This document shows, piece after piece, positions 14,201 to 61,000 of a DNA stretch of 64,000 nt. Position numbers and translations under genes: made by a program. Under the pieces are notes generated by a model. That model had not been told where the DNA came from. It saw nothing but the letters and a program-made list of their open reading frames with translations, and made no database searches. Source of the DNA: Cenococcum geophilum (Eukaryota); assembly GCA_050273025.1 (NCBI GenBank), contig CP158635.1, positions 9,362,001 to 9,426,000 on the forward strand, in the 5' to 3' direction. Numbering within the stretch: the first letter of the stretch is position 1; every line of letters begins with the position of its first letter.

Positions 14201-17200
14201 TTAAACGTAATAAAACCTTATCGCCTACTCTAAAATGCTTGTCTTAGTGCTTATAGTTATACTAAAGTCTCTACTACTCTTAGGTATTTTGTAGGCTCTA
14301 CTTTACATACTTCTATTACTCCTCCTATTTCTAGAGATATCCTTATACTCTCTAGTAGATGTTCTTAGACTTCCCGGTAGAATCCTATAACTAATTATAC
14401 GGCCTTAGCTAGTAATTGTTGGGTATACTATTAAACCTAAATAGTTGGACGCTATAGGTAATCTGGATTGGTATATACTTATATAATATATATTGCTTTA
14501 AATTATAAGCGTACTCCGCGTACGGAAGTAGCTTATATTAATTATCTTACTAGTAGTTTAAATATATCCGTAGGTAAGACTCTAGTTCCTAGTTTTGGCG
14601 TTCTATTTACCTATCCGTCTATAGGTGGAAAGCTATACTATAATAGTGGTCTATCTTTAAATAGAAGTATAAATCCGACTAGTACTGGCTTATAAAGACG
14701 CTGCCCCTATTAGTAATAATAGAGTGCGGCTAATTTACTTTAAGAAAGTATTTCTCCTTAATTAGGTTGGCGAGCTCTTATATATTAATCGTCTTATTAA
14801 TAGGAAGGTATTAGACGTACTTTAAAAACCTATTAATAAGTATGAGGACTAAATTATATATTTGTCCTTAGCTATCTTTAGATGGCGGGAGATCTGTAAT
14901 GAAGTCTATGGCGTAATATTACTATGGCTTATTAGCGGGGGGAACTAATTTAAGTAGACCCTATGGCTTGTGCCTATAGATCTTATATACTTAACACTTC
15001 TTATAATAGCTAATATACTCCTTTGCTTCCTAATTAAGCCTTAGCCAATAGTATTTACGCTAAAGTAATTCTACTGTCTTTACTTAACTATAGTGGCCGC
15101 CTAGAGGATTATTATAATTCTTTATAAGAATCTTCTGTTATAGATTTACTTCTTATAACACCCAAACCTTACTACCTCTACGTAGTAGGCCTATCGGGTC
15201 TAGTTCCTAATAGTGGCGCCTAGTAGCTTCCTTTCTGTTACGTTTCTGGTCTACTTCCGTATTAAAAATAGTATAGAAAGCGTCCCTCTGTTACACCTTA
15301 TAGATGAGATCCGTTAACCCTTTGGATGGTTTCTGGGTAAAAGCTATTTTGTCCTATACTGCTCTAAGTACGAGACTAGATAGTACTATAGATCTTGTAA
15401 CTCTTTAATGCGCGTATATTAGGAAGGCCGCTATAAGGTTAAAGTCCTTTAGTTATTATAGGGCTCCGAGTTCTAATTACTCTATAGCTTTGCTATTGGT
15501 TTAAGGGGATAGCTTAGCAATTAGGGATGGTATATTACTAGGTTCTGAGAATGTATTAGGGACGTCCTGTCTAGGTATATTTAGACCCTTATTGGCAACG
15601 GACCGGGTACTAGCTAGAACGTCAGTAGAAACTAATGGGGCTTGTACTGCCTAAGACTCGGTATATAGAGCTATAGGTACTTGAGCATCCTATACCTAAA
15701 GCTTGTTCTATAATGTAGGGAGTAAGATATCTATTATCTGTTTTCCTTCTCCCGTTTTAAAGCCTTTGGCATAGTCTAGCTGTTGTGACGGTCTATTAGT
15801 AGGGTTGTTTTCCCCTAGCTTGTATTTAATCTTAAAATTAAATCGCGTGAGCTCCTTTGCCTATCTGGCTTGTTGAGGTATAAGCTCCTTTATAGTTATA
15901 AAGTAGCGTAGATTATGGTAATCTAAGAGTATATAAGTAGTATAGCTCGCGTGCTTAAGGTAATGTCGCCACTATTTAAAGTAGTTAACTATAGCTAGTA
16001 GTTCCTTATTGTGGGTATAATACCTAACTTTAGGTCCCTGGAATTTTCTGCTATAAAATGCTACTGGTCTCTAATGGAGCTAGGTAGCGTCTGGATGCCT
16101 GTTAGGTTATAGTAGGATACCAATAAGGGTAAAATTTAATGCATTAGTGATTATTATTAATGGCTAATCTGGGTTGAAATGCCGCAGTAATAGAGCTTCT
16201 ATAAACTTTGTGCGAAGTTCCTGGAAGGCCTTCTAAACCTTTCCGGGCTATAACTATAGCTTATACTATTTGGTTGGTCCCTTCTTGGTTTTCTTCCTTG
16301 CTGCCTTTAAGCTTTTTGCTTCTTGGGTTAGGTTTTGGGAAGCTTTTGTAATATAGTTAGATAGGTATTAGGTGACGTCCAAGTAGTTATAAATAAAGTG
16401 CCTATAGAAATTGGCAAAGCCTAGGAACACTTAAATATCCTAGTAGCTCTCTAGCTCTGGCTACTTCTAGATTGTCTATACCCGTACTAGGTCTATAACT
16501 ATACCTGTAGGCGTTATAATATAACCTAGGAACTTGACCTGCTTAGTATTAAAGATATACTTTAACGCTTTGGTGTAGAGGCCCTAATTATCCAAACGTT
16601 CTAGTACTTCGCGGATGTATTACTTGTATTAATCCTTGTCTTCTAAGTAGATTAAGATGTTATCTAAATAGAAAACGCATGTGTAGTTAACTAGTCCCCC
16701 TAAGGCTCTATAAATGTATGATTAAAATGTTATAGGCGTATTGGCTAGCCTAAAAGGCATTACTAAATACTTAAAGTGGCTATATTGGGTCTTAAAAGCG
16801 GTCTTTTACTTATCCCCTTCTTTAATACGGAGCCTATAATAGGCGTCTTATAGATCTAACTTTATAAAGATCTTCGCCCTAGATAGTTAATCCAGTATTT
16901 TACTAACTAGTAGTAGTGGGTAACGGTTCTTAATTATAATCTTATTAAGACTGTGATAGTTTATATATAGCCTTATAGTTCTATTTGGTTTTAGGATAAA
17001 GAAGATCGGCGCGCCTAATAGCGACTTACTAGGCCGGATCCATCCCTTTTTTAGTAAGCTATTAAAGTACTCCTATAGGATCTTAAGCTCTTTATATAAG
17101 AGGTTATAGATAGGAAGGTTTAGTGGTTGTTTACCTTCTTTTAGATTAATTACGTGATTGTACTCTAAGTTCTACGGTAGGACTTTAGCTCTCCTACCTA

Positions 17201-23900: not shown

Positions 23901-26900
23901 TTACTAAGAAGCTAGGAGGAAGTATCTAATTCTACGTTAACTATAGAGGACTTAACGCTATTATAATTAAAAACTAATACCTAGTACCGCTTATATAGGA
24001 GACCCTTAAGCGGCTTAGCTAAACTAAAATCTATACTAAGCTTAATATTATTACCGCCTTTAACTACTCTTAAATACAGGAAGGTAACAAATGGAAAACC
24101 GTATTTATATTGCGCTTTAGCCAATTTAAATATACCGTTATACCCTTTAGCGTATATAACGGCCTAGGCACCTTCTAAAGCTATATTAATAACGCCTTAC
24201 GGGACTACCTTAATGACTTCTGCTCTGCGTACCTAGATAATATACTTATTTATAGTAATAACCCTTTTAAGTATACCGAACATATTTAAAAGGTCCTATA
24301 GCGCCTTAGGGACGTAGGACTTTATATTAATTTAAAAAAAATGCGAATTCTTAGTTACAGAAGTAAAATACCTTAGACTAATTATTACTACTAAGGGTGT
24401 CCGTATAGACTCTAAGAAGGTACGTATAATTACTAAATAGTAAGCTTTTAACTACATTAAAGATATATAAGCCTTTCTTGGTTTCGCTAACTTCTATTAA
24501 AAATTTATATATAATTTCTTAGGCGTAGTAGCACTACTTATAGCAATAATGCGAACAAAGGGCCTTTTTATAAAAGGAAGAAAAACGTACCTACGTTTTG
24601 CCTAGACGCCTAAATATAAGAAGGCGTTCTAAGACCTTAAAAATGCCTTTACTAAAGCACCTATCCTAGCCTACTTTACACTAGGATAACAACTTTATTT
24701 TAAAACCAACTCCTTAAACCACGTTAACGTAGGCGTCCTCTCCTAGATAGGCGATAATAGTTTCCTTTACCTAGTTATATTCTACTTGTCTAAGCTTATA
24801 CTATAAGAGTATAACTATAAGATCTATAATAAAGAACTCCTTACAATTGTATAAGCGTTTAAAGAATTTTAACTAGAACTTTCCTTAGTAGAGCCCGACT
24901 AGCTAACTAAAGTCCTTACGGACTATTATAACCTTAAGTACTTTATAACTATGAAGTAGCTAAACTAACGCTAAGTATATTAAAATGAGTTCCTCTTTAG
25001 TTTTAACTTTAAAATTATATATAGACTAGGAGTATAAGGTACTAAACCTAATAGCCTAATACGCCGCTCGCAAGACCTTCCTTAGTCTAAAGATAACCCC
25101 TATAATTAGTTCTAATAATAAACGATTCTAAAAGCATAAAATTTGGCCCTAGGTATACTACCTATAATAGAGCTAACTATACCTTAGCTTTATACTATAG
25201 AACTAAAGTTACCTTCTAAAATTAATAAGCTTATTACTACGGCATATAATACTTTTATTAACCTATTACTGTATTAACTTATAGCCGCAAAGACCGCTAG
25301 CGCCTATACGCTACTTATTAACCTCTAAAGCTTAGGCTAGATTAATATAGCAGCCTTAGAAGTAAAAGAGAACAGGCTCTATTATAGAGGTCGCCTATTT
25401 ATCCCTAATTTAAAAATCTATAACGGCAACTAATCTAAATAGCCCACAACCTCTAATTAAGCGGCTACTTAGGTAGAGAAGGAACCTATAAGCTTCTTAG
25501 CTAATACTACTTCTAGCCAAAAATAATAGACTTAGTTAAACGCTTTATAGGCTCCTACTACGGTTATAAGCGCGCTAAGGCCTTTAATATAAAGTACTAA
25601 GGACTACTATACCCTCTACTAGTACCTATATGACGATAGGCAGATATTGCTATAGATTTCGTTGTTAACCTACTACCCTATAAATAACACGGCCGTACCT
25701 ATAAGAACATCCTTATAATAATATACCGACTTATAAAATAGCGCCACTACGTCCTAACTAAAGGTGTAGCTGTTAGCGACGTTACTAACGCCCTCCTTTA
25801 TAAAGTTTACTAACTATATAGGTTACCTAACTCTATTACGTCCGACTAAGGTATATAATTTAACTTTAATATATAGAGACAAATCTGGCAACGCCTTAGT
25901 ATCTCCGTTAAGATATCTATATCCTTTTACTATAAAACTGCTAGGTAACCGGAAAACGCTAATGCCAGTATAAAAGCGTACCTACGATAGGTAGTTACCT
26001 ATAGTTAAGATAATTAGGTGGATTACCTTCTACTAGGTAAATTTATAGCGAATAATCATGTCTTAACCACTATAGGATTTACCCCGTTCTTTGCGAATAA
26101 GGGTTATTACCCCTAATCTAGCATAGAGCCACTAGAACCTATTAATAAGAAACTGCTATATAGAAAACGCCTTAAGATACTATTTACTAACTAGCATGCA
26201 GACCGTATAAAAAATCTACTTAACTACTATAAGGGAGAAATGGCCTAGGCTTAAGTAAAGTAGGCCTACTTTGCTGACCGCTATAGAACGCCACCACCAG
26301 AGATGCGTATTGGCGACTGGGTATAGCTAAATACACATAATATCTCTATATAGAGGCCTATAAAGTCACTCGATTATAAGAACCTTAGCCCCTATTTAAT
26401 TAAATAAGTTATTAATAGGGGAGCCGCATATAAGCTAGAACTCCCGCCTACTCTAGCCACCCGTAGAATATAGCCTATATTTTACCTATAGCTACTATAC
26501 CTCTATTAGCCTAACCCTTTACTAGGGCAGATATAGCCTAAACCTCTATTAGTACTAATCTAAGATAAGAACAAAGACAAGAACCACAAGGAGTGGACTA
26601 TTAAATAAATTATTAACTTTAAGTACTTTAGTAAAGGCAGAGGATAACAGCTCTACTACAGAGCTATATACACAGGATTTAACATAGATTAGCTAGAATA
26701 GTAACTATAGGAAGACTTTAAAAATACAAAGGATCTAATTAGCGACTTTTACTACGCAAACCTATAGAAACCGGGCTTAAGCAGAGATTTTATACCTAAT
26801 CCTCTATAGGAGCCCTTATAGAGTTAAACCGTTATACATTACTACGTAAAGGCAAATTACCGTTAGATTGCGGTAAAGTGCGATTACGTAACTAGAATAT

Positions 26901-35757: not shown

Positions 35758-38700
35758 TATTAGCCTACTTAATAAATAACTTAATAAAGATAAATAGACG
35801 GAAATAGATAGTTTTATCTATAATAGGAACTACTACTAAAAAATAATATAAAAGCCGTTTTATAATTAACTATAGAGCTACTAACTAATTTATAAATACT
35901 TAATTTATACGCACTTATAACCTACCTATCTTACCCCTTATTAAAGCCCGCGCCTTATAATTTGCTAATAGTAGTTATATCGTATAAAAGATTACCTATA
36001 TAGTATAACTCTACTTAGATATAAATAGGCACTAGGAAGAACTCTAGGCCTATATTATACTACTTACTAACTACCCTATTATTCTTAGAATAAGCTAGCT
36101 TAAATAATATAACCCTACTATTAACTAACAAAAGAAAGAAATAACCTTTAACTCTAAATACTATAGAGAGACTTACCTAGGACATAGCCTAGCCGCCTCT
36201 ATTTACTTACTAGGATATTAACCTAAAAAAACCCTTATTACCCTACCTATGATTAATTGCTACTATATAAGTGCTATGGCCTTTTACTATTTAGTATATA
36301 GGAAAGGCTAAACCGTTACTATAGCTTCCTATTTATAACTATATAAGCTTAATAAAGAATAGAACTACGTCCTCTATAGTAATAAGGTAAATATAGTTAA
36401 CCTTTTAAAAGACGACGCCCCTATAAAACTCTATAGACTTTTACCTTTAGACTTTAAGAAGTTTATAAAGCTTAAAAAAGGACTTACTAATAAAGAACTC
36501 TATAAGCTCCTCCCTAAGAGGTACTATAACTTTATTAATATATACTTATAAAAGGGCGTAGATATACTTTCCCCATATTAACCTAATAACTATGCTATTA
36601 ATATTAAATAAGGAAAAACGCTACCTTATAAGAGACCCTACCTAATATTAAAAGATAAACTTTTAGTTATAAGAAAGTATATTAACAAGTACCTTAATAA
36701 AGGGTTTATTTGTCCTAGCATATTACTAGTAGCCGCCCCTATTCTTCTCGCTAAGAAGTTAAAAGGAGGTATTTAATTTTATATTAACTATAGAGGACTT
36801 AACGCTATTATAATTAAAAACTAATACCTAGTACCGCTTATACGGGAGACCTTTAAGCGGCTTAGCTAAGCTAAAATCTATACTAAGCTTAATATTATTA
36901 CCGCCTTTAACTATCTCTAAATATAGAAAGGTAATAAATAGAAAACCGCATTTATATTACGCTTCGGCTAATTTAAATATACTATTATACCCTTTAGCGT
37001 ATATAACGGCCTAAGCACCTTCTAAAGCTATATTAATAACGCCTTATAAGACTATCTTAATAACTTCTACTCTGCGTACCTAGACGATATACTTATTTAT
37101 AATAATAACCCTTTTAAGCATACTAAGTACGTTTAAAAGGTCTTATAGCGCCTTAGGGATATAGGACTCTATATTAATTTAAAGAAGTGTAAATTCTTAG
37201 TTATAGAAGTAAAATACCTTAAACTAATTGTTACTACTAAGGGTATTTATATAGACCCTAAAAAGGTATATACAGTTACTAAATGGTAAGCCCCTAACTA
37301 TATTAAGGACGTATAAGCCTTTCTTAGTTTTACTAACTTCTATTAAAAATTTATATACAACTTCTTAGGCGTGGTAGTACTACTTATAGTAATAATGCAA
37401 ATAAAGGGCCTTTTTATAAAAGAAAGAAAAATATATTTATGCTTTACCTAAACGCCTAAATATAAGAAGGCGTTTTAAAACCTTAAAAATACTTTTACTA
37501 AAGCACTTATCCTAGCTTACTTTATACTAGAATAATAACTTTATCTTAAAACTAACTCCTTAGACTATATTAACATAGGCGTCCTTTTTTAAATAGGTAA
37601 TAACAGTCTTCTTTACCTAGTTGCATTCTACTTATCTAAGCTTATACTATAAGAGTATAACTATAATGTCACGGAACCCCACCGCAGGGGCCTCTATAGG
37701 AGAGCCCCGTGCTCTCGCGTACACCTCGCGTATAGCTTATGTCAGCTACGCGTAGGTATATCACCTCCTTACACCCTCGACCCTTACGATCGATCGCGCA
37801 ACGCCTTGTAGACTCCTCAAATACATACGCTTTGTAGCCACTGCTCTTGTCCCGTGATATATAAGATCTATAATAAGGAACTTCTTATAATTATATAAGC
37901 GTTTAAGGAATTTTAACTAGAACTCTTTTTAGTAGAACCTAATTAGCCAACCAAAGTCCTTACGGCTTATTATAACTTTAAGTACTTTATAACTATAAAG
38001 TAGCTAAACTAATACTACGTACGCTAGAACGAGTTTCTCTTTAGTTTTAACTTTAAAATTATATATAGACTAGGAGTATAAGGTATTAAGCCTAATAGCC
38101 TAATATACCGCTTATAAGACCTTTATAATTAGTTCTAATAACAACTAATCCTAAAAGCATAAAATTTGGCCCTAGGTATACTACCTATAATAGAGCTAAC
38201 TAAACCTTAGCTTTATACTATAGAACTAGAGTTATCTCCTAAAATTAATAAGCTTATTATTACAGTATATAATACCTTTATTAACCTATTACTATATTAA
38301 CTTATTACCGTAAAGACCACTAGCGCCTATACGCTACCTACTAATCTCTAAAGCTTAGGCTAAATTAATATAGTAGCCTTAAAAGTAAAAGAGAATAGGC
38401 TCTATTATAGAGGCCACCTATTTATTCCCAACTTAGAAAATTTATAACGGTAACTAATCTAAATGGCCTATAACCTTTAATTAAGCGGCTACCTAAATAG
38501 AGGAAGAACCTATAAGCTTTTTAGCCGATATTACTTCTAGCTAAAAATAATAGACTTAGTTAAACGCTTTTATAGGCGCCTGCTACGGTTATAAGTATAC
38601 TAAGGCCTTTAATATAAAGCACTAAGGACTACTATACCCTTTACTAGTATCTATACGATAATAGGTAGATATTGCTATAAATTTCGTTATTAACCTACTA

Positions 38701-44980: not shown

Positions 44981-45049
44981 GTCACCTTGATTCGATCGAT
45001 CGATCGAATCGTTTATCGTGTTCGCTGGCTGGTCGTTCGAACGGTTGTC

Positions 45050-45740
45050 GTGTGGCTCTGGCGACGGTCATGTGGCGATGACGATGGTCGTCTGGCTCTG
45101 ACGGTCGTCTAGCTCTGGCGACGGTCATCTGGCTCCGGCGACGGCCGTCTAGCTCTGACGACGGTCGTCCAGCTCTGACGACGGTCGTCTAGCTCTGGCG
45201 ACGGTCATCTGGCTCCGGCGACGGTCGTCTAGCTCTGACAACGGTCGTCTAGCTCTGACAACGGTCGTCTAGCTCTGGCGACGGTCATCTGGCTCCGGCG
45301 ACGGCCGTCTAGCTCTGACGACGGTCGTCCAGCTCTGGCGACGGTCATCTGGCTCCGGCGACGGTCGTCTAGCTCTGACGACGGTCGTCTGGCTCTGACG
45401 ACGGTCGTCTGGCTCTGACGGTTGTCCAGCTCTGGCGACGGTCATCTGGCTCCGGCGACGGTCGTCTAGCTCTGACGACGGTCGTCTGGCTCTGACGACG
45501 GTCGTCTGGCTCTGACGGTTGTCCAGCTCTGGCGACGGTCATCTGGCTCCGGCGACGGTCGTCTAGCTCTGACGACCGTCGTCTGGCTCTGACGACCGTC
45601 GTCCAGCTCTGGCGACGGTCATCTGGCTCCGGCGACAGTCGTCTGGCTCTAACGACGGTCGTCTAGCTAACGGTCGTCTAGCTCTGGCGACGGTCGTCTG
45701 GCTCCGGCGACGGTCGTCTGGCTCCGGCGACGGTCGTCTG
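45050..45740 (+). repeat. 20-bp minisatellite, consensus GACGGTCGTCTAGCTCTGAC, with higher-order repeats
   Basis: About 34 units; 97-bp higher-order period at 45421 and 45518. Confidence 0.95.
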
Positions 45741-45906
45741 CTGGCTGTCGTTCTGGTGTCTTCCTAGGTAGGGAGGATGTAAGGAAGGGTAAAAAATGAG
45801 GTGGCTACCTAGGTGTATATAGGGGGTATACTTGGCAGAGGCACGTGTAGAGGCTATCGGGAATATAGCGGGGACCCGATAGTAATGTGTCGCGCGCACA
45901 CACAAA

Positions 45907-46731
45907 GGCTTTGTGTAGAGCTTCGTGTAGGGCCTCCGTACGCAGAGCTTCGCGCAGAGCCTCGTGTAGAGCTTCGCGCAGAGCCTCGTGCAGAGCCTCC
46001 ATATGTAGAGCTTCGTGTAGAGCTTCGTAGAGCTTTGTGCAGAGCTTCGTGTAGAGCTTCGTGCAGAGCCTTGTGTAGAGCTTCGTGTAGAGCTTCGTGC
46101 AGAGCCTCGTGCAGAGCCTCTATATGCGGAGCTTTGTGTAGAGCCTCGTGTAGAGCCTCGTGCAAAGCTTTGTGTAGAGCTTCGTGTAGAGCTTCGTGCA
46201 GAGCTTCGTGCAGAGTTTCGTGCAGAGCTTCGTGCAGAGCTTCGTGTAGAGCCTTGTGCAGAGCCTCTGTACGCAGAGCTTTATGTAGAGCCTCGTGTAG
46301 AGCCTCGTGCAAAGCTTTGTGTAGAGCTTCGTGTAGAGCTTCATGCAGAGCTTTATGTAGAGCTTCGTGCAGAGCTTCGTACAGAGCTTCGTGCAGAGCT
46401 TTGTACAGAGCTTCGTGTAGAGCCTTGTGCAGAGCCTCTGTACGCAGAGCTTTATGTAGAGCCTCGTGTAGAGCCTCGTGCAAAGCTTCGTGTAGAGCTT
46501 CGTGCAGAGCTTCGTGCAGAGCTTCGTGCAGAGCTTCGTGCAGAGCTTCGTGCAGAGCTTCGTGCAGAGCTTCGTGCAGAGCTTCGTGCAGAGCTTCGTG
46601 CAGAGCTTCGTGCAGAGCTTCGTGCAGAGCTTCGTGCAGAGCTTCGTGCAGAGCTTCGTGCAGAGCTTCGTGCAGAGCTTTGTGCAGAGCTTCGTGCAGA
46701 GCTTTGTGTAGAGCCTCGTGCAGAGCCTCTG
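45907..46731 (+). repeat. 12-bp minisatellite, consensus CGTGCAGAGCTT
   Basis: 15 perfect units at 46501-46680; degenerate units to the left; 171-bp higher-order duplication at 46241 and 46412. Confidence 0.96.
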
Positions 46732-46999
46732 CATCAGGAATTTTTTTTTGGGCACGTTGTTGCAAGCGAAAATCGGGGTCTGCAAAACCTGCAGGCGTAA
46801 GTCGCAATTTTAGCATTTGCGGCAATTTGCAGCAATTTGCTACAAACACATAGATAGGGTAGACGCGTGCATAGGTAGCCTATGTGTTTGTAGCAAATTG
46901 CTGCAAATCGCCGCAAATTGCCAAAATTGCGACTTACGCAGGTTTTGCAGACCCCGATTTTCGTTTGCAACAACGAGCCCAAAAAAAAATTTCCTGATG
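46732..46999. mobile_element. 268-bp foldback MITE forming the right end of the TIR element
   Basis: Inverted arms of about 120 bp beginning CATCAGGAA, separated by a loop of about 25-30 bp. Confidence 0.88.
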
Positions 47000-49568
47000 T
47001 AATTAATCCATCTATGTCTTTTTATAGTAAAGCCCCTAATAGCTTTTATTATTTTATAGTTTAGCTTTTTAACTTAGAGTGTCTGCTCGCATATTATCTA
47101 TACCCTTAGTATACTAAATTTTGAAATAGTATTCTATAAGTATCTTTACCCATCTAACCTATCTTTAGTTAAGTTCCTTTATTATTAAAAATCCTATTAG
47201 GTTCTTATAATCTATCTTAACTATAAATAGTTTCTCTATGCCTTATAAGAATGCTCTTTATTTCTTTAATACTATAACTATACCTAATAACTCTTTATTA
47301 TAGATATTATAGTTTAACTCTAGTAGTATTATCTTTTAACTATAATATGCTATTAGGTGCTATCTATCTAGATGCTTTTATATAAAGTATACCCCTAGTA
47401 TATAATTTAATACATCTATTTTTACAACCGTCTTTAGTCCTAGTTAATAGATCTTAAAAACTAGCTCCTAGGTAAACAACTCCTTAACTTATTTAAATAG
47501 CTTCTACTATTTCTTTCCCTATACCCATAGTTCTTCCTTCTTTATTAATTGCGTAAATAGCTTAATATCCTTTAACTACTGCGCTATAAACCTTATATAG
47601 TAATTATAAAACCCTAAAAACAATTTTAACTGCGTAACGTTTTCCGGTTCTTACTAATTCACTATAGCCTTAATCTTCTTTAGATCTATACTAAGTTTGC
47701 CTAGTTTAATAATAAATCCAATAAAATTGGTCTTCCTAGTAAAGAACTTGTATTTCTTAATTATTACTAGTATTTGTTTTTCTTATAGTCTCTTTAAGAC
47801 CTATTTAACGTATTCTCTATATTCTTCCTTATTTATTAAATAGATAATAATATTGTTAAAATATACTATAACAAATTCATCTAAGTATTCTCCTAATATA
47901 TTATTAATACACTTCTAGAACGTTACTAGTGCGTTTATAAGCCTAAATTGTATAACTAATAGTTTATATAGTCTCTCTTTTAACCTAAAGGCTGCTTTTT
48001 ATTTATTGCCTTCCTTAATTCTAATCTAATAGTACGCCCATCTTAAATCTATCTTTATAAAGATTTAAGCGTTGCCTATCCTGTCTTAGATTTCGCTAAT
48101 TAAGGGTAAAGGATACCTATCCTTCTTAGTAATGCTATTTAACTACCTATAGTTAATATATAGCCTTAGTTTGCCATTTTTCTTTAATATAAATAGTACT
48201 AGATAACCCGCTAATGACTATAATAGTCTAATATATCCCTTTTATAGATTTTCCTAGATAAACTCTTTTAATGCTCTACCTTCCTCTTTAATAAGCTTAT
48301 AGATTAAAAAGAACCTTAGACTTATTCCTAGTTCTAATTCTATTTTATAGTCCTATACTATATACTCTAATAGCTTTTTACTTTCCGGTAACTATAGTTT
48401 CTTACTATACTTATAGTATCTCTTTAGTATATAACTTAAGCCTCGCTTAGTTTCCTTATATATTACTCTAACTTAGTACTATACTAACTTAGCTTATTAT
48501 TACATCTTACGGCGTTAAATATCCTTAATATTAACCTAACCTATAACCTAATTAATCTTTAGATTATATTCCTGTAACTAAGGCATTCCTAGTACTGCCT
48601 TATTATTCCCTAATAGTAATATATTAAAAGACATCTTAATTTATCTCCCTTTAATAGTTAACTAAATAGGTCCTATTTTAAGATTAATAATACCTCCTCT
48701 ATAGGCTATTAGGTCTCCTAAAATCGTTACTAATAAGTAAGAATACTCCTTTTTCCTATATAGTAACCCCATTTTTTTAACTACTACTAGCAAAATATAG
48801 TTCCTTATTACTCCACTATCTATTAATACCTTAAACTGTTAATCTTACCACTTAACTTATAAATTTAGGTATTGTCCTTAAATTCCTTTAAGGGTCTAAG
48901 GCTCTACTATTAGTTCCCTCTAGTCCTATAGGCCTCTACTTTTCCCAACTATTAGCTACTTAATCCTATATATACTTAGTCTAACTTTAGCCAATACTTA
49001 GTTCGCTTTTTATCTTTAATATACTATAGACACATATTCTTTAGGTATTCCCACTACTATTATTTATCTAGTGTAACGGAACCTTATAGCAGGAACTACA
49101 ATAGGCTCGTTATTAGGCTAGGTGTATAGGTAATATAAATTAAAGTTAACAACGTAATAATAACTAGTAGAGTGGTTGCCTAATAGATTAACTTTAATTA
49201 TATTCTAAAAATCACTACAAGGAAGGAACTATCTAGGTAGGGACTATAGTCCTTTAAATACACAACCGTACTCCTATAAAATCCTCCTTATATATAATAT
49301 ACGTATACTCTATCTACTCTATTATAGATCCTATAGATTATATAGATTATATAAATTATATTATATAACCTTAGTTACCATTCCTCGTTATATAGCTCTA
49401 TCGGCTCTATCCTAAACCGTACTTATATTAACTAACTAGCTTCTTTTAACTCTTCCCTAAGTAGTTATAACATTATACTTAAAGCGTTTGTAACACCATC
49501 TCCCTCCTTTTTATCTTTGTTCTTAAAGATTCCTAATATCTCTAAGTTGTTTACTAGAGGTGTAATAT

Positions 49569-52500
49569 TGTAACGGAATTCCCTAGAAGGTACATATCAG
49601 ATAAAACAGGAGGAGGTCTCATCTATGTTTTAGAAGGAGGTCTTATCTATATTCTATCTACGTCCTAGAAGACACGGTCAGACAGATAAGGGGTAAAGGG
49701 TTTTGCTAGCGTCTTAGAAGGATTATATAGGGAGCTGGTTCTCCTCTAGAGAAGAACTAGCAATTAGTCTCTAAATAGAAGTAGTTAAAAGCATTTATCC
49801 TTTAATACATAAAACTCATTCTACCTTTAACTTACCTTCTATTTACCTTTAACTTACCTTTTACTTACCGGTGACACTGTTAATTAGATAGTTATACGTT
49901 TCGGTTAAGCTGGTCTCTTACAATTTTAATCGCTTACAATCCGTTAGGAACGTACGGCTATTAATTAACGATAATAAACTATACTCCTATACCCCACGAA
50001 GCAACGCCCTCACCGTAAGAGGCTCAAAGAGTCTCCCTAGAGGAGCGCATTCCCTCTTCCTATAAAGAAGCCACGGCTAGTCTGTCTAACCTTGCGAGAC
50101 CCTTAGGAATAATTACCGCTAGGGAGTTATTAAAGCGGTCGCTATACGAGACCCTATAAAAAATAAAGGAGTTAAAGATATAATTAAGATAAGCATATTA
50201 AGACTACTAAGAATAATTATAAGGACAATTAGGGGAAGTATAGACACCCCAGATACGAAGCGGACTTAAAGGGGTAACACCACACTATGCTATAACGTTA
50301 GAAAAACCTAAATTCCGTATAAAGGAACCTAATAAGTACTATAGTAATAGTCTTTAGAACTGCAATCGTTTTATCCAATAATGCGAAACCAAGTTTTAGC
50401 TAGATCCAAAACGATACTCTAACGAGTATAATTAGACACTAATTACTTTTACCTTCCTACGTGGCACCGTTAAAAGTTTATAGATATGCTATAAGAAGAA
50501 ACTTACTATACTTTTTAAATTTAGCAAACTTAGGACCTAGTTAGTTAATTAGGTCCAAGACCCTACTAATTAAAGGATAGACTATAACCAGCAATACCAC
50601 AACGCTAAATAGCGGGATAGTTAGACTATAGTCTAGTTTATAAACTACTTAAAAGAACTAGAAGATAATATACCCTACTTAAATCTATAGGATAACGCTA
50701 TATAACTTCACCAGCTACTCGCTAAGCTATAACCTAAGATTTAACAGGCCATATAAGAGAAGGGCGAAATTCCTACCTCTTAAAAAAAGCTTATCTCTAA
50801 AGCTACTCGGATTAAAAGTACTAAAAGAGACTATTTAGGCAAGCGAAAGAAATAAGACGCCAATAATAAAGAGCGTAGGACTAGACCTAGCTTTAATAAT
50901 AGGGGCAGATTCCAACCTAACCGCTCTACGGAAGGATAACGTAAGTAGGCCTCGCAGCCCTAGAGCAACGCTAGTTAACCCTAAAATAATAATAGGCAGA
51001 GACCTAATCCGTAGAAGGGGAACTGGGAGATACGCACCTATTATAACTACGGCAAGAAAGGCTACATAAGCCGCTTCTACTAGCAGAAGAAGTAAGAGTC
51101 GGCCTAATTAGGAAAAGAGACAGCCTAGTAAATCTTTACTCCCTTATACTAGGCTAGCAAGAGAAAAAGAAAGTAAACTACCGCATAGTTATTCCTGTCT
51201 CTATTTAAGTTAATAATAAATAGGTAACGTAAGACTGCCTTATAGACAGCGGCGCGAGTATAGGGTTTATTTCTTAATTACTAGTAAAAGAATTAGATTT
51301 AGATCTTAGCGGCTTATAGGTGCGCACTATTTAAAATATTAGAGGCCACTAGATTCCATACTATAGGGAATAGGCTTTTTCCATGGCCAGCTAGGACCGC
51401 GATAGTCTATAAAATACATAGGAGATACGCTTCTATACCGCAGAAATTAAGGGGTATAACCTTATTTTGGAATACCTATAGCTTCGCCAAGTCAATCTAG
51501 ACATTAATTGGCCTTTAGCCTTATATTGACATCGGAAGTCTTAACCGCGCATTATAGTTAAAAATTAAAAGACTTTCTTAAACTATATATAAGAAGAAGG
51601 GTGGGTATATACTATATATGCCACTCTTAATACTAAGAACGGGGACATAGGATATTTATTTTTAGATGTCCGGCTATACGCAGTTAAGGAACTAGAGATT
51701 CTACAGGAATATATAGACTTAGAAGATATTTCTAGTAAAGAGGCTACATAAACCTTACCTAACCCTATATTAGTTAAGCATAAAATAGACACAGGGGATA
51801 AATAACCTCTTTTTAGACCACTGTATAACCTATCAGAAAATAAGCTAGCGGTACTGCGTTAATATATAATAGACAATCTTTAGAGAGGATAGATTTAGCC
51901 CTCTATAAGCCTAGCAGGGGTACCAATTATATTTATACCCAAGAAATACAGGACCCTTTACCTTTATATTAACTATTAGGCGCTAAATAAGATTACTATA
52001 AAGAATTGCTACCCGTTACCCTTAATAGGGGAGCTTATTAATAGGCTGTTAGGCGTAAAAATATTTACAAAATTAGATTTAAAAGATGTATACTATTAAA
52101 TCCAGATTAAAGCTAGCGATAAGTAGAAAACGGCGTTCTAAATATAGTACGGCCACTTTAAGTACCTAGTAATGCCATTTAGGCTTACTAACGCACCAGC
52201 GATATTTTAGGCCTATATTAATAAGGCATTATTAGGCCTATTAGACACGATATATGTGGTCTACCTTAATAATATTATAGTTTACTCTAATAACTACGAA
52301 GTATATACGTACTACGTATAAATAGTACTAGAAAGACTACGGGAATATAAGCTCTATATAAACCTAAAAAAAGTACATATTCTATGCTACTAGCATTAAT
52401 TTTTTAGGCTTTATTATTAGCGTTAACGGAGTATTAATAGAGAAAAGTTAGGTGGACGCTATTAGGGAATAGCCCTACCCCATAATATTTAGAGAAGTAT

Positions 52501-55500
52501 AGTTTTTTTTAGGCACGGCGAACTTCTACCGAACGTTTATTGTTTACTACTTATAAGTAATACTCCTAATTACTAATCTACTAAAAGGATCTAAGAATAG
52601 TAGGAAGTTAGAACCCTTTATATTTAGGAAAGCTATTAAGTAGGCTATAGACCGGTTAAAGAATTTGTTTATGTTGGCGCCTATCTTAATATACTTCTGC
52701 TAGGAGCTATATATATACCTTAAAACGGATATATCCGGCTTTGCCCTAGGGGCAATTATATCTTAATTAAAAGACGGAAAATAGTATCCTGTGGCGTTTT
52801 AGTTAAGGAAAATAACCCCTATAGAGTAGCGTTATATAACGCACGACTAAAAGCTACTTACGATAATTACAGTAATAAAGCACTGGCGACATTATTATAT
52901 AGGAAGCAATTATCCTATTAAAGTCCTTACAGACCATAATAACCTAGAATACTTTATAACTATAAAGGTGTTAAGCAGTTAATAAGCAAGATAGGTAGAG
53001 GCACTATTGTAGTACGACTTTAAAATTACGTACTGCCCAGGAAAGATAAATCCTACTAATAGGTTATTAAGATGTTTAGATTATAAGACAGGGAGAATCT
53101 AGGACAGCATAGGGGAAATAATCCCTATATTGCAAAATTTGCTTAAAAAAAAAGAAGACTCTTTCCCTAAAACTATAGAATTTTATAGTAGGGCAAAGGT
53201 CCTAGTAATGCAGCTATAAAGCGACACAATTATAGAGCCGTAGGATATAGTTATAAACTAGGTTATAGACTAAGCAGATATTATAAAGTTAGCATACCCT
53301 AGAATTAGCAAGAATTCTACGGGATATACTAGAAATATTACGGTACCTTTAACTTAACGGCATATTAGCTACAAGTTTTCAGATCTAAGGGGGATAGGCA
53401 AGATACCTATCTGTAGCGTAGCATACTATACAATAGTAGGAGAATCTGCTGGTACTAATAGTTTAAAACGTCTTATACTACGCCTTAAGTCTATAATAGC
53501 GGCAGGTAAAATAAAAGCAAGTAATCTATATAAAACCTTTCTGGATCTTCTTCTTTAAGCTTAATAAAGGGACACCTTCGCCTCTAAGGAGAGATGGAAA
53601 AATATAGTAGAGACTAACTTAGCCAGAGTTACTAAGAAGCTATAGTAGTAAGACTAAAAGGGTCTGTTGCGCTTTAAGGGTGCTATATATATCCCAAAGG
53701 ATTAAGCAATTTAAGACGAAATTTTAAAGGTCTTCCACAACAACCCTTTTAGGGGTCACTACGGTACCAATAGAACCCTTAAGGCCGTTTAAAGGAAATA
53801 CTTTTAGAATGGAATATTTAAAGAAGTTAAGGACTATATATTAAGGTATAATACGTACTAAAGAATATAGATATCCAGGTATTACCTATATAGCGAGTTA
53901 TTAGTGCTTCCTATTCCGTAGGGACCCATATTAGAATTAATAATAGATTTTATTATAGGCTTACCCCCTACTAAGATAAAAACTAGAGAGGTTACTAACG
54001 CTATCCTAGTAATTATTAACAGGTATATAAAGTTTTTAGGATACTTTACTATTATAATAACGATTACGGTAGCAGAACTAGCAGACCTGTTTTTAGAATA
54101 GTAGCTTTTATTTAGCACGCCAAGGGGAATTATATCTAATAGAGGTACCGTATTTAACAGTACATTTTAGTCTGTATTCTGTCTCTTATTAAAAATATAG
54201 TAAAGGATAAGCACTACTTTCTACCTATAAATAAATGGGCAAACAAAGCGTCTAAATGCGTTGTTAGAACACTACCTCCACTACTATATTAATTATTAAC
54301 AGGATAATTAGATATTATAGTTAGCTTTAACGTAGCACGTGTATAATATAAGCATCTATAGTAGTATTAAAATGACCCCTTATAAAGCATTGTTTGGGGT
54401 AAAAGCAAATAACCCCTAGAACGTTAAGGACATTATTTCTAAAAGAGAGGCACTAGCGGCGTCCAAAAGAATTAAGCAAATGAGAATTTGTAGAGAGGAA
54501 CTTAAAAAGCACTTACTAGACGCCCAGGCTATATAAAAAAGGTACTATAACAAAAAACATATACTAAAAGAATTTAAGATAGGAGACGAAGTCTTACTAT
54601 TTATAAAAAATATCTAAATAAAACGCATTAAGAAGAAGCTGGATTATCGGTAGCTTAGACCCTTTAAAATAGTTAAGAAAACTAAAAAAAACCAAGCCTA
54701 TAAATTAGAATTACTAAAATCTTATCTAATATATCCTATATTTTATATTTCCTTACTAAAGCTATACTAAAGAAGAGATAGTACGGAACTACCCCTACCT
54801 AGTAAAATTAATAGGGAACTGGAATGGAATATAGAAGACATTCTAAACTAAAGATAGCGCTAGAAAAAGCGCGAATTTTTAGTTTATTAGGAAGAATACT
54901 CCTAGGTACATAACAGTTAGAAACCTAAGGAGTACCTTTAGCCGGAATATAATACCGCAATTAAAACCTTCCTAAGAACTAAAGGTAAAGACTTAAAAAT
55001 GGTTCCGGATATGCCATAGATAAAGCAACAGGAAAGACCCTATAAATTAAAACCATAGAATTAAGTATAGGCATTAAGAACGGAAACGTTTCGCTATTAT
55101 AATAGGGATCCTAAAATCCTATAAGAGAAAGCCTATAGGGATCTATAGGAGAACCACTAGGGATACTATTTAAAGAAGACGCTAGTTAAGAAGGAGCAGT
55201 AGTACTATAAGAAGTAGCCTTAGGGATTCAGAAAGATCCCCTAGGGATAAAAGGAGAGTATCTGGCCCGGCACCGGAGATATATAGTAGAGTTAATAGTA
55301 CAAAGAGGAGCAAAAGAACAGCCTATAAAGAATTAGAAATTTTAAGAAATTATAAGGCACCTATAGGAATACCACCCATTTATCATATATAGGGATTATA
55401 GTAGTGCACTATATTTATATAGATTATCACTAAAGCTTAGAATAAAGGCATCCCTAAAGTATAAAGTTAATTCCCAATAATAGGGCATCCTAGAGGCACC

Positions 55501-57298
55501 CAAGAGGCACTATATAAAGCTATTCTATAAGAAGAAGGAAAGAGCTAGGTAATAACTTAAACACTAGCAGTAGTAATAGGAGCCTCCTCTTCCATCTTAA
55601 TATTATTATTAACGGTATTATTAGCTCCTCTATCCCCAGAAGCATTAGCACTTCTACTAATATTCTTCTTAAAATAACGGGTACTAAAAGGACTAGTACG
55701 GGCGGGAAACTAGCGAGAAGAACGTTTATCTTAACCTTTATCGCTATCCTTAGTATCCCTAGGTTCCAAATCGGCGTCTAAGTAGGGATTAGAGAGATGT
55801 TAGCTAAAGGAGTTAGTATAGTTCCTAAGCGAGTTACTAGAGAAACTTACCTAGCTAAAATAGCCCGCGTAAGAGTACGAATATTATTATTAATAAGGAC
55901 GAGCTGTTCGCATATACACTCCTAGATACTATATATCTAAGAACGTTGCGTCTCTATAGTAGTGGAAACCCTTATAGAACTAAAGAGTTTATAAGTAAGG
56001 GAAGACACCTTCTATCCCTACCTATTACTATTAAAATATTAGCGGAAATCTTAGATGGCGCGTTAGAGCCTATAAGTCTTATATATATAGATAGTGGGGA
56101 TCTAGTATAATTAGCAAAATCTAAAATAGGACGGAATGGGAAATACCAAAATGTAGGTCTTTCTCCTACTATAACAATAGGAGTACTTAGATTTATTTTC
56201 GCTAGAGTAAGGCATCTTATAAACGTGGGAAGGATCCTATATAAGAGTATAAATGCAGTAATAATAGCATTTTAGGGAAACTGCCATAGGAGTAATAAAT
56301 GCTGTCTAGGGCGTTACCGGGAGATTAATAACACTGCCGCTGGTCTAGGGACGCGTAGAAGGACTATAAGCCATTATAAGAGAATACTCTAAGAAGTTAG
56401 CATTGTTATAAGAGATAAGGTGGGGATCCTATTACTTATAAACGTGTTATAAAAAGAGAATAAAGTAGCTATAAAAGAATAGCTAGAGACACGGAAGCTA
56501 AAAGTAGGGATATAAAGGAAATAGTTTGCTAAAAGATAAGACAAATAGTGTTGTTAATAAAAAGACGCGTAAAAGGCAACAGCTTATAAACTGGAAGAAA
56601 ATTAAAATAAAGACATTATTATTAGAATCTATTTTAGGTAAATAGGGATAGTAGCTTATAAACGCGTTACATAGAACAACCTCTAGATTAACTTATAACA
56701 AACTCTTATAATAAGAAAGGTAAATCCTATCCAATTTTTATTATTATTATTTTAGTTCTATTATAAAGGTATTATAAGAAACTATAGTAGGAGAAGAGTA
56801 AAGGAACTAAGGATAAAGTAAGGTTCCACGCTAGTAAAGAACTAGCTATAAGCCGCATTATAAAGTACCTTTCTACTAAGAATTTCCCTAGTAGTTTTAG
56901 CCGGAACTCTATAAAAGCTTAGTAAAGGCAAAGTCTTAGAGAACTAAAACCCTTAAAGGGGAGGCAATTGTAACGGAATTCCCTAAAAGGTACATATTAG
57001 ATAAAACAGGAGAAGGTCTTATCTATATTCCATCTACGTCCCAAAAGACATAGTCAGATAGATAAGGGGTAAAGGGTTTTACTAGCGTCTTAGAAGGATT
57101 ATATAGGGAGCTAGTTCTCCTTTAGAGAAGAACTAGCAATTAGTCTTTAAATAAAAGTAGTTAAAAGCATTTGTCCTTTAATACATAAAACTCATTCTAC
57201 CTTTAACTTACCTTTTATTTACCTTTAACTTACCTTCTACTTACTAGTAACACTGTTAATTAGATAGTTATACGTTCTAGTTAGGCTGGCCTCTTACA
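49569..57298 (+). mobile_element. Full-length Ty3/Gypsy family G element (7.7 kb) with a long 3' region
   Basis: LTRs at 49569-49922 and 56969-57298; TSD AATAT (49564-49568, 57299-57303); gag CCHC near 51040, DSGA protease near 51245, RT, RH, IN, chromodomain to about 55000; PPT AAAGGGGAGG. Confidence 0.96.
55557..56374 (-). pseudogene. Antisense accessory gene of family G: RIPped, two introns, six-Cys Zn-cluster-like N-terminus, about 242 codons
   Basis: ATG at 56374; CX2CX11CX11CX2CX6C (de-RIPped); intron GTATTT..GCTAAT..TAG at 56146-56102; intron GTAAGT..ACTAAC..TTTAG at 55850-55804; single frame after splicing ending in an acidic MEEEAP tail. Confidence 0.75.
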
Positions 57299-57338
57299 AA
57301 TATCCATTTAATTAATTTGGTTAATATTATTACTTATT

Positions 57339-58030: not shown

Positions 58031-61000
58031 GTAGTTTTTAGGTAGTCTTACTATAGCCTATCCACTTAACCTTATACTATATTTCATCGTTAGTATCCTT
58101 ATAATTAACGATCTTTAAAACTTGCTATTTATCTTCTTCTTATCCTCTATACATGTCTGCTTTATAGACTAGTAGCTTAATATTCCTATATACTAGCTCT
58201 AGTATTGCGATATACTATATAGGGTAAATCTTTATCTTTACTAGTAGGTTTAATTTAAACGTAACTAATAAAATCCTTTATATAATTTTAAAAGGTCCTA
58301 GTCTAATATAGTCTAACTTCTTACTTAGTTATCGACTCTTAAAATTTTTGTGTAGTAGCTATACTTTATTTCCCTCCTTAAGATCTGGTCCCTTAGATCT
58401 TTTAGTGTTATAGTACCTTTTTATTCTCTCTTATACTATTTTTACTACTTCCATAAGGTCTATATAAAGATTTATTAACGGCTTTATTCTTTCTTTAACT
58501 ATACTACTCGTTTTCTTTACTTATTATAGTAACAACGATATTCTTAGCTTATATCTATAATTCGCCTTAAATAGTAATATACCTATTCCTTCTTAAGGTA
58601 TTGCATTGTATATAAACTATATAACTAGTAATAACAATACCTAATTATCCTATACGTGATTAATATAGTGCCTTAAATACTGCTCTAGTGTCTAATTTAA
58701 TCTTTCTATTTAACCGTCTGTCTGCGGACAATATGCGATAGAATTTACTACTCTAACTCCTTATTCTGCTAAGAATACCTTCTAAAATGTTGCTATAAAT
58801 CTTAGATCTCTATCCGATATAATCTTACTTAGTGCTCTATATCTTATAAACACTTCCTTAATACAAATTCTAGCGATATCTTCTGCTAATATTTCTTCTA
58901 TATATGCTATAGAGTATCCCTACTTTATAAGCTTATCCACTATTACTAAGATTACGTTATAATCTTATCCGGTAATAGGGTCTCTTAATTTTAGCAACTT
59001 AATAATAAAGTCCTATAATATAACCTCCTATAGTCTTTCTAGTATTTTAATAGGTTATAGCCCTCTATATAGCTTATGCCTTATTAGTTTATTTCTTTAG
59101 CAATCTAGGTATTCCTTAGTTACCTTTTGCGCTAAGCCCTAGATTCTATTAATAATATATTCCTCCTAAAGTTTTAATACTAAGCCCATTGCTCTATTAT
59201 GTCCTTAAGTTATTCCCTTATAAAAATCTTTTATAAATTGTTCTGCTATACTTCTTAGAATATACTTAGCTTCTTAATATTCGTATATATCCGTCTATAG
59301 ATCTTCTAGCTATACTTTTAGAATTCTTTATACCTAAAGGCTTTCTAGTAACTTGTAAACTCTCTCTAATTCTTCCTAAGTTATTATAATCTTTAGATAA
59401 TTATATCTAATTAATCCGTCTATATCTTTTTATAGTAAGGCCCCTAATAGCTTCTCGTTATTTTATAGTTTAGCTTTTTAACTTAGAGCGTCTGCTTGTG
59501 TATTATCTATACCCTTAGTATACTAAATCTTAAAATAGTATTCTATAAGTATCTTTACCCATCTAACCTACCTTTAATTAAGTTTCTTTATTATTAGGAA
59601 TCTTGTTAGGTTCTTATAGTCTATCTTAACTATAAATAGTTTTTTTATACCCTGTAAGAATGCTCTTTATTTCTTTAATGCTGCGACTATACCTAGCAAC
59701 TCTTTATTATAGATATTGTAGTTTAGCTCTAGTAGTATTATCTTCCGACTATAGTATGCCACTAAATACTATCTATCTAGATATTTCTGTATAAAGTATA
59801 CTCCTAGTATAAAGTCTAATATATCCGTTTCTATAACCGTCTCTAGTTTTAGTTAATAGATTTTAAGAACTAGCTCCTAGATAAACAACTCCTTAACTTA
59901 TTTAAATAATTTCTTCTATTTCTCTCCCTATGCCCACGGTTCTTCTTTCTTTGTTAATCGCGTAAATAGCTTAATATCTTTTAACTATTATGCTATAAAC
60001 CTTCTGCAGTAATTGCAAAACCCTAGAAATAATCTTAACTGCGTAACGTTCTCTAGTTCTTACTAATTTACTATAGCCTTAATCTTCTTTAGATCTATAC
60101 TAAGTTGGCCTAGTTTAATAATAAATTTAATAAAATCGGTCTTTTTTATAAAGAACTCGTATTTCTTAATTGTTACTAGTATCTATTTTTCCTATAGTCT
60201 CTTTAAGACCCATTTAATATATTCTTCGTATTCTTCCTCGTTTATTAAGTAGATAATAATATTATTAAGATATACCATAACAAATTCATCCAAGTATTCT
60301 CCTAATATATTATTAATACACTTTTAGAATATTACTAGTGCGTTTATAAGCCTAAATTGTATAACTAATAGCTTATATAGTCCTTCCTTTAACCTAAAGG
60401 CTACTTTTTATTTATCGCCTTCCTTAATTCTAATCTAATAATACGCCTATCTTAGATCTATCTTCGTAAAGATTTGCGCGTTACCTATTCTATTTTAAAT
60501 TTTGCTAATTAAGGGTAAAGGATACCTATCCTTCCTAGTAATGCTATTTAACTGTCTATAATTAATATACAGCCTTAGTTTACCATTCTTCTTTAGTATA
60601 AATAGTACTAGATAACCCGCTAATAACTATAATAGTCTAATATATCCCTTTTGTAGGTTTTCCTAGACAAACTCTTTTAACGCTTTACCCTCTTCTTTAG
60701 TAAGCTTATAGATTAGAAAGAACCTTAAACTTATTTCTAGTTCTAATTCTATCTTATAGTCCTATACTATATACTCTAACAGCTTCTTACTCTCTGGTGA
60801 CTATAGTTTCTTACTATACTTATAGTATCTTTTTAGTACGTGACTTAAGCCTTACTTAATCTCTTTATATATCGCTCTAACTTAGTACTATACTATTTTA
60901 GCTTATTATCGCATCTTATAGCGTTAAGTATCCTAGATATTGACCTAACCTATAACCTAATTAATCCTTAGATTATATTCCTATAACTAAGGCATTCCTA

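Follow-up and report, generated by a model that had tools for sequence, protein, structure and literature searches.

A probable antisense accessory gene of three exons, now a pseudogene, between pol and the 3' LTR of a Ty3/gypsy retrotransposon family in Cenococcum geophilum

Can a fungal retrotransposon carry, opposite gag-pol and near its 3' end, a gene of its own that is interrupted by introns? The question is raised by a 64,000-nt stretch of the Cenococcum geophilum genome (GCA_050273025.1, contig CP158635.1, forward-strand positions 9,362,001 to 9,426,000), called the window below, whose coordinates are used throughout. Its plus-strand segment 49569-57298 is one Ty3/gypsy long terminal repeat (LTR) retrotransposon degraded by repeat-induced point mutation (RIP). 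In a reading with RIP reverted (de-RIPped), the pol frame ends near 55060, and the 1.9 kb from there to the 3' LTR hold a minus-strand frame in three exons. We consider it likely that the ancestor of this family carried a real antisense accessory gene of three exons between pol and the 3' LTR. In the window copy this gene is a pseudogene, killed by RIP.

A spliced frame opposite gag-pol

The first-pass annotation of this locus had proposed a minus-strand gene with introns of 45 and 47 nt, the second with textbook signals, a cluster of Cys codons, and an ATG about 600 bp from the 3' LTR. Both introns were found at the proposed places, and removing them leaves 726 nt in a single frame that runs from an ATG at 56374-56372 to a TAA at 55559-55557. 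The signals of intron 2 are as described, and the ATG lies 595 nt from the inner edge of the 3' LTR (56969). The parts of the gene and the spacers on either side of it are:

56375..56954, no strand assigned: spacer B, upstream of the antisense ATG; candidate antisense promoter or 5' untranslated region, without periodicity
56147..56374, minus strand: exon 1, 228 nt, with the ATG, a Ser/Pro/Thr/Ala-rich start, a Cys-rich stretch at codons 36-74 and a basic patch
56102..56146, minus strand: intron 1, 45 nt, in frame, GTATTT ... GCTAAT ... CTAG
55851..56101, minus strand: exon 2, 251 nt, with six of its seven stops resolved by other copies
55804..55850, minus strand: intron 2, 47 nt, AG/GTAAGT ... 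ACTAAC ... TTTAG, the donor being GTGAGT in two copies
55557..55803, minus strand: exon 3, 247 nt, phase 2, with an Asp/Lys/Ser-rich tail, ending in TAA
55061..55556, no strand assigned: spacer A, from the end of pol to the antisense stop codon, without coding periodicity and with background stop density

The spliced frame of the window copy contains 13 premature stops, all TAA or TAG. Only three codons in the Cys cluster are real Cys codons; the remaining Cys residues had been obtained in the first-pass annotation by reverting TAY codons (Y, pyrimidine). Strict introns of the type GTAAGT..CTAAC..YAG, 40-90 nt long, occur four times in the 128 kb of strand in the window, so that about 0.03 are expected per 818 nt. 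Judged on this copy alone, the whole pattern is suggestive and falls short of significance; it becomes convincing only together with other copies.

Since RIP makes transitions only, metagenome contigs were searched with a purine/pyrimidine pattern, a 44-letter string taken from exon 2. This yielded 10 further copies, all from one metagenome and all selected through exon 2, that are 83-90% identical to the window over 57299-54800. All 11 copies are RIPped (GC 0.31-0.36, TpA/ApT 1.5-1.7). The family is very abundant and RIP-diversified: 28,017 and 20,553 contig pieces in two DNA runs match the element at a likeness of at least 80%, and about 98% of their differences to it are transitions (1157 of 1185 in run X1; differing places, 1313). 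Summed contig depth in run X1 is 45,000-54,000 over 55928-56668, as against 54,000-129,000 over pol. A consensus was de-RIPped by placing C or G wherever any copy keeps it. One copy, L010, has two 1-nt deletions and was left out of the comparison of stops and Cys codons, which thus used nine other copies.

For eleven of the 13 premature stops, one or more of these nine copies has a sense codon instead (Gln at eight, Arg at three; CAG, CAA, CGG or CGA). After de-RIPping, 2 stops remain among the 241 codons of the spliced frame (0.8 per 100), with 0, 1 and 1 in exons 1, 2 and 3; pol, treated in the same way, keeps 14 in 711 (2.0 per 100). Conservation of the open reading frame (ORF) at a level comparable to pol holds only for the inferred ancestor. 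De-RIPping removes TA dinucleotides and thereby lowers the number of stops in every frame, which counts for the possibility that no gene was ever present, but the six frames of the aligned 2.5 kb, treated identically, still retain 263 stops in 4984 codons (5.3 per 100). At that background rate, finding at most one stop in the 159 codons of exons 1 and 2 has P ~0.002, by a rough Poisson estimate that ignores the choice of place and frame.

Both introns keep their length, 45 and 47 nt, wherever a copy covers them (10 of 10 for intron 2). Intron 1 contains two in-frame stops that no copy resolves, and it is bracketed by GT..AG with a CTAAT branch site; two copies have AT in place of the GT donor and two have AA in place of the AG acceptor. 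The splice sites thus vary among copies only by RIP transitions, and the three-exon minus-strand frame with both introns was upheld by reconstruction from the other copies, as the first-pass annotation had suggested should be tried. That annotation had named two outcomes that would speak against the gene: splice sites that are not conserved, and TAY codons that stay Tyr in the least-RIPped copies. Neither was seen. All four codons guessed to be Cys (37, 52, 64 and 74) are TGY in at least one other copy, namely in 1, 1, 6 and 2 of 10; over the full set of codons 36, 37, 40, 52, 64, 67 and 74, the counts of TGY are 7, 1, 3, 1, 6, 2 and 2 of 10. The general conversion of TAY to Cys fared less well, standing at 5 of the 19 TAY codons, the four guessed ones included; 7 revert to Arg and 2 to His, and 5 are Tyr in every copy. 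Outside the alignment, Cys37 is backed by the metagenome ORFs P0004, P0007 and P0008, of which the latter two read KCC and P0004 reads KSKCSYCRSRRKTC unbroken.

Codon periodicity is a stronger test than stops, since de-RIPping cannot create it. Nucleotide use by codon position in the spliced coding sequence gives chi2 63.3 (p 9e-12), as against 24.8 for the unspliced stretch; pol gives 36.4 over 2070 nt. The signal is confined to 56450-55520 and missing from both spacers (chi2 5.6, p 0.47 for spacer B, taken as 56966-56447; chi2 10.5, p 0.10 for spacer A). A third position poor in A keeps one phase from about 56450 to 55880 and then continues to 55520 in the phase that fits a 47-nt intron, so that between about 55910 and 55790, at intron 2, the register passes from phase 2 to phase 1. 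The minus-strand ATG and TAA stand at the edges of the periodic stretch, and the consensus donor, branch site and acceptor stand exactly at the register shift.

The inferred protein and known antisense genes

The inferred product has about 241 residues: a Ser/Pro/Thr-rich start, the Cys-rich stretch, a basic patch, a helical-looking middle and an Asp/Lys/Ser-rich tail. Its inferred Cys spacing is C-X2-C-X11-C-X11-C-X2-C-X6-C, plus one adjacent Cys. The Zn2Cys6 consensus is C-X2-C-X6-C-X5-12-C-X2-C-X6-8-C. The protein here likewise groups its Cys, with six or seven in a span of 39 residues close to the N-terminus, and the second half, C-X2-C-X6-C with Arg/Lys followed by a helix-like stretch, is what we take to recall a fungal Zn2Cys6 domain (PF00172). 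The spacing differs from that domain in the first loop, with 11 residues here versus 6, and the closing Cys52 is present in 1 of 10 copies. We do not assign the protein to that family. A zinc knuckle of the gag type (C-X2-C-X4-H-X4-C) was rejected on spacing.

Searches were made with natural copies. Translations of exon 1 from 10 copies match no Pfam family, and PF00172 itself matches 0 of 10 at E up to 10; a profile searched against PDB sequences, including solved Zn2Cys6 structures, finds nothing better than E 5.7, a meaningless value. The PF00172 and PDB tests are weak, since RIP has cost every natural copy several Cys. A word-indexed protein search with a 10-copy profile returned one match (E 0.23), a RIPped copy read through intron 2. 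Full HMMER against 1.84 billion representative proteins returned six matches, five of them fragments of the same family and one a spurious repeat protein; the clusters of these matches bear no informative name, and no Botrytis or other named protein is among them. The ESM Atlas gave no usable match, and nothing was found in viral contigs by pattern or by protein. AlphaFold2, run on the natural ORF P0004 with 12 other copies as alignment, gave a mean pLDDT of 46 and a pTM of 0.21, too low for the fold to be of use.

Boty-like elements of Botrytis and Sclerotinia are described as having an antisense gene, brtn, between pol and the 3' LTR (passages in PMC7264820, PMC8365987, PMC4227169 and PMC5987419), and no fungal case besides Boty brtn turned up in full-text searches of the literature. 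Boty, as those passages portray it, and the element here are alike as ascomycete Ty3/gypsy elements, with a pol of chromodomain type in Boty and putatively so here, and in having an extra gene of unknown function on the opposite strand between pol and the 3' LTR. Boty is described as having GC-rich copies (PMC8365987), whereas every copy here is RIP-dead. The two genes are likened by position and strand only.

In plants, antisense ORFs in the same place are described for maize Grande, rice RIRE2 and Silene Retand (passages in PMC7264820 and PMC11963269). These aORF-3R resemble the gene here in position and orientation between pol and the 3' LTR; according to the same passages they occur in most copies of a family and are proposed to be DNA-binding or regulatory, with function unproven. 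They differ in belonging to another kingdom and to lineages that are not chromoviruses. The Retand ORFs are described as carrying TRP28 (PF04195), whereas the antisense gene here matches no Pfam family, and the word 'intron' is absent from the main text of the Retand paper (PMC11963269), whereas the gene here has two introns.

A third comparison is with retroviruses. HTLV-1 HBZ and its relatives are spliced antisense genes, expressed from the 3' LTR side, whose products are nuclear regulators. An analogy between HBZ and retrotransposon antisense genes is drawn in a passage of PMC11963269. The gene here has no sequence relation to HBZ, belongs to a fungal host and is known from sequence alone. 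As far as could be tested, its protein appears unrelated to known antisense proteins.

We favour the following course of events. The ancestor of this Ty3/gypsy family probably carried, opposite gag-pol, an accessory gene of three exons with two short spliceosomal introns. Transcription would have started either in the 3' LTR or in the 595 nt that separate it from the ATG, and the introns would have persisted through retrotransposition because, being antisense, they are not spliced from the sense genomic RNA. The product most likely was a small zinc-binding, nucleic-acid-binding regulator of the element. RIP has since killed the gene in the window copy and in every other copy seen. A fuller version of this account is tentative, and we think it rather improbable as a whole: that the element encoded a zinc-cluster-like DNA- or RNA-binding regulator, expressed in antisense from its 3' end and keeping its introns by virtue of that orientation, that it was in function a fungal counterpart of the antisense regulators of retroviruses without any sequence relation to brtn or the plant ORFs, and that it may have aided the rise of the family to hundreds of copies before RIP silenced it.

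Among LTR retrotransposons, antisense accessory genes are known in a few plant lineages and, as the one fungal case found, in Boty (brtn); in no case has a function been demonstrated. With its explicit exon-intron structure, putative metal-binding domain and very high copy number, a second fungal example would offer a handle on function. The case also provides a worked approach, in which a gene invisible in a single RIP-degraded copy is recovered by purine/pyrimidine fetching and comparison of copies. From the viewpoint of annotation the locus is ordinary, a dead pseudogene in a dead element.

Weighing the antisense gene against its rivals

Several observations weigh against an ancestral antisense gene or are weak points in the case for it. 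(i) All 10 fetched copies contain the gene, but the pattern that fetched them lies in exon 2, which makes this partly true by construction. (ii) None of the natural copies seen is intact: each of the 11 DNA copies is interrupted by 7-37 premature stops, and all five related metagenome ORFs are fragments. (iii) Two stops stand in every copy, a TAA at 56053 in exon 2 (10 of 10 copies) and a TAA at 55733 in exon 3 (all nine copies covering the site); we infer that they are saturated CAA sites. (iv) Cys37 and Cys52 each come from one of the 10 aligned copies, Cys52 without outside support, and under the rule of retaining any C or G, a chance A-to-G change can come out as a Cys. (v) The donor of intron 1, GTATTT, is not textbook, having no G at +5, where one is usual; relaxed introns of this type number 74 in the window (0.58 per kb of strand), so that intron 1 alone is unremarkable. 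(vi) The 13 stops in 242 codons of the window copy lie at about the 9th percentile of all 242-codon windows (mean 23). (vii) An RNA run, X21 (about 12 in 100 read, about 9.3 million records), gave 31 mapped reads, all less than 95% alike and none spanning a junction; a further run, X22, which is only guessed to be RNA, has 9 contigs on the element; both are uninformative on expression. (viii) No homologue outside the family was found in the Pfam, PDB, HMMER and ESM Atlas searches, blanks that are weak because the queries were RIP-damaged natural sequences.

Selection offers little help in either direction. The 11 copies form two subfamilies (WIN, L001, L002, L003, L007 and L009 versus L004, L005, L006, L008 and L010) separated by 33 fixed transversions, all within 57216-56450, that is, in the 3' LTR and spacer B. 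Shared transversion columns number 36, of which 29 are in spacer B, these all at or above 56450; below that position there are only two, of which exon 3 and spacer A have one each, and neither separates the subfamilies. Of the 726 columns of the coding sequence, 11 show transversions, a single one of these being shared, and the remaining differences between copies are RIP transitions. Copies of the coding sequence thus differ almost only by RIP and give no test of purifying selection, a further point on the adverse side. Selection tests among copies were rejected, the subfamilies having no fixed transversion in the coding sequence, introns or spacer A. The pattern points to shared recent ancestry or recombination, not constraint, and the element looks like a mosaic or recombinant whose breakpoint lies some 76 nt upstream of the antisense ATG. 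Constraint is hinted at only by two indels that keep the frame, a 12-nt deletion at 56364-56353 common to four copies and a 6-nt deletion in the more distant copy P0004.

The rival that survives best grants the antisense gene and denies it a role: the element would have captured part of a gene of its host, such as the first exons of a zinc-cluster transcription factor, and carried it passively. The spliceosomal introns are in keeping with this, as is the frequency of A at third positions, 0.10-0.15 versus 0.27 in pol; the C-X2-C-X6-C and basic patch, which we take to recall Zn2Cys6 factors, fit it too, and 241 residues would be short for such a factor. Transduction of cellular genes is also discussed, in a passage of PMC11963269, as an origin of the plant antisense ORFs. 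Against capture, the gene is present, with its frame kept, in both subfamilies and in more distant copies, and no host homologue appears among the 1.84 billion representative proteins, a blank that RIP damage makes weak. We judge passive capture unlikely.

A second rival assigns the coding to the plus strand, as a third sense ORF (env-like or other) downstream of pol, of which the minus frame would be a codon-aligned shadow. Periodicity of the RNY type (purine, any base, pyrimidine) is symmetric under reverse complement, and stop counts by themselves do not decide the strand either, codon-aligned plus frames being as stop-poor after de-RIPping as the minus frames (1, 1 and 0 stops versus 0, 1 and 1). 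Two de-RIPped plus ORFs are open, one of 178 codons in the pol frame (55518-56051), which is the main source of doubt about strand, and one of 83 codons (55859-56107). A codon model trained on pol also prefers the plus frames, giving the minus frames lower scores of -19, -15 and -4 bits. All of this speaks for the plus strand. We rejected the codon model as a test of strand, since it mostly reflects the A-rich composition of the sense strand. Amino-acid composition scores +8.1 bits for minus and -1.4 for plus, the plus reading being poor in A at second positions; this preference comes through exon 3 only, exons 1 and 2 leaning slightly to plus. The RNY index in exon 3 is highest (0.42) in the antisense frame only. 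Against the plus strand, the register shift by 2 at 55850-55804 meets minus-strand GTGAGT..CTAAC..YAG, while none of the plus-strand GT..AG pairs there has a consensus donor. The 178-codon ORF lacks a Met over its first ~130 codons, and at least 12 in-frame de-RIPped stops stand between it and pol; the plus frame is interrupted opposite exon 1 and, by hand reading, opposite intron 1; Pfam finds neither an envelope nor another domain in any frame of the stretch; and the Cys pattern is present only in the minus reading. We regard the 178-codon ORF as a complementary shadow of the antisense gene, without being certain of it, and a plus-strand gene as very unlikely.

That there never was a gene, and that frame, splice-like motifs and Cys pattern arose by chance from RIP-skewed composition and free choice of introns, is the least credible reading: the unexceptional stop count of the single copy, the commonness of motifs like those of intron 1, and the lack of both expression evidence and a homologue would suit it, but it has to contend with a stop density after de-RIPping far below background and below that of pol, with periodicity that ends at both spacers, with a register shift that coincides with one of only four strict introns in 128 kb of strand, and with indels that are both in frame.

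The element and its surroundings

Apart from the antisense gene and its spacers, the features of the element are:

49564..49568, no strand: target-site duplication AATAT, left, read directly and identical to the right copy
49569..49922, plus strand: 5' LTR, TG...CA, 354 nt, a direct repeat with 56969-57298
49923..55060, plus strand: gag-pol, RIP-degraded with many stops, recognised by Pfam with stops read as X
56955..56964, plus strand: polypurine tract AAAGGGGAGG, read directly, its role suggested by its position inside of the 3' LTR
56969..57298, plus strand: 3' LTR, 330 nt, with TG..CA ends, a direct repeat with the 5' LTR
57299..57303, no strand: target-site duplication AATAT, right, read directly

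Plus frames match, in order, RVT_1 (E 3e-20), RT_RNaseH (E 5e-19), Integrase_H2C2 (E 2e-7) and SH3_Tf2-1 (E 8e-9), and minus frames of the whole element, with stops as X, have zero Pfam matches. A chromodomain gives zero Pfam matches at E up to 0.1; the de-RIPped text after the SH3 domain is chromodomain-like by eye only. The two LTRs are 86% identical (blastn). The 5' LTR exceeds the 3' LTR by 24 nt (49622-49645 versus 57022), and six copies in the 11-copy alignment have a 96-column gap near 57033; the LTRs of the family thus differ from one another by a repeated block.

The element is present once in the window, where blastn finds no second copy of the family. It is bracketed by the two copies of a 300-nt direct repeat (47049-47348 and 59458-59757), which are 90% identical and lie at a distance of 12,409 nt, and weak minus-strand similarity to reverse transcriptase (RT) was seen just inside each of them (47786-48163 and 60229-60572). 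Copies of another gypsy family may flank the element or may enclose it as a nested insertion. The window is AT-rich, with GC about 0.25-0.38 except in one island (45047-46726, GC 0.51-0.62), which consists of two minisatellite arrays and is not a gene: a 20-nt unit repeated ~35 times at 45047-45740 and a 12-nt unit repeated ~67 times at 45908-46726. Four short stretches elsewhere (741-854, 16747-16874, 24908-24956 and 37941-38000) are 72-86% identical to the RT/RNase H region of the element and mark other RIP-degraded gypsy families in the window.

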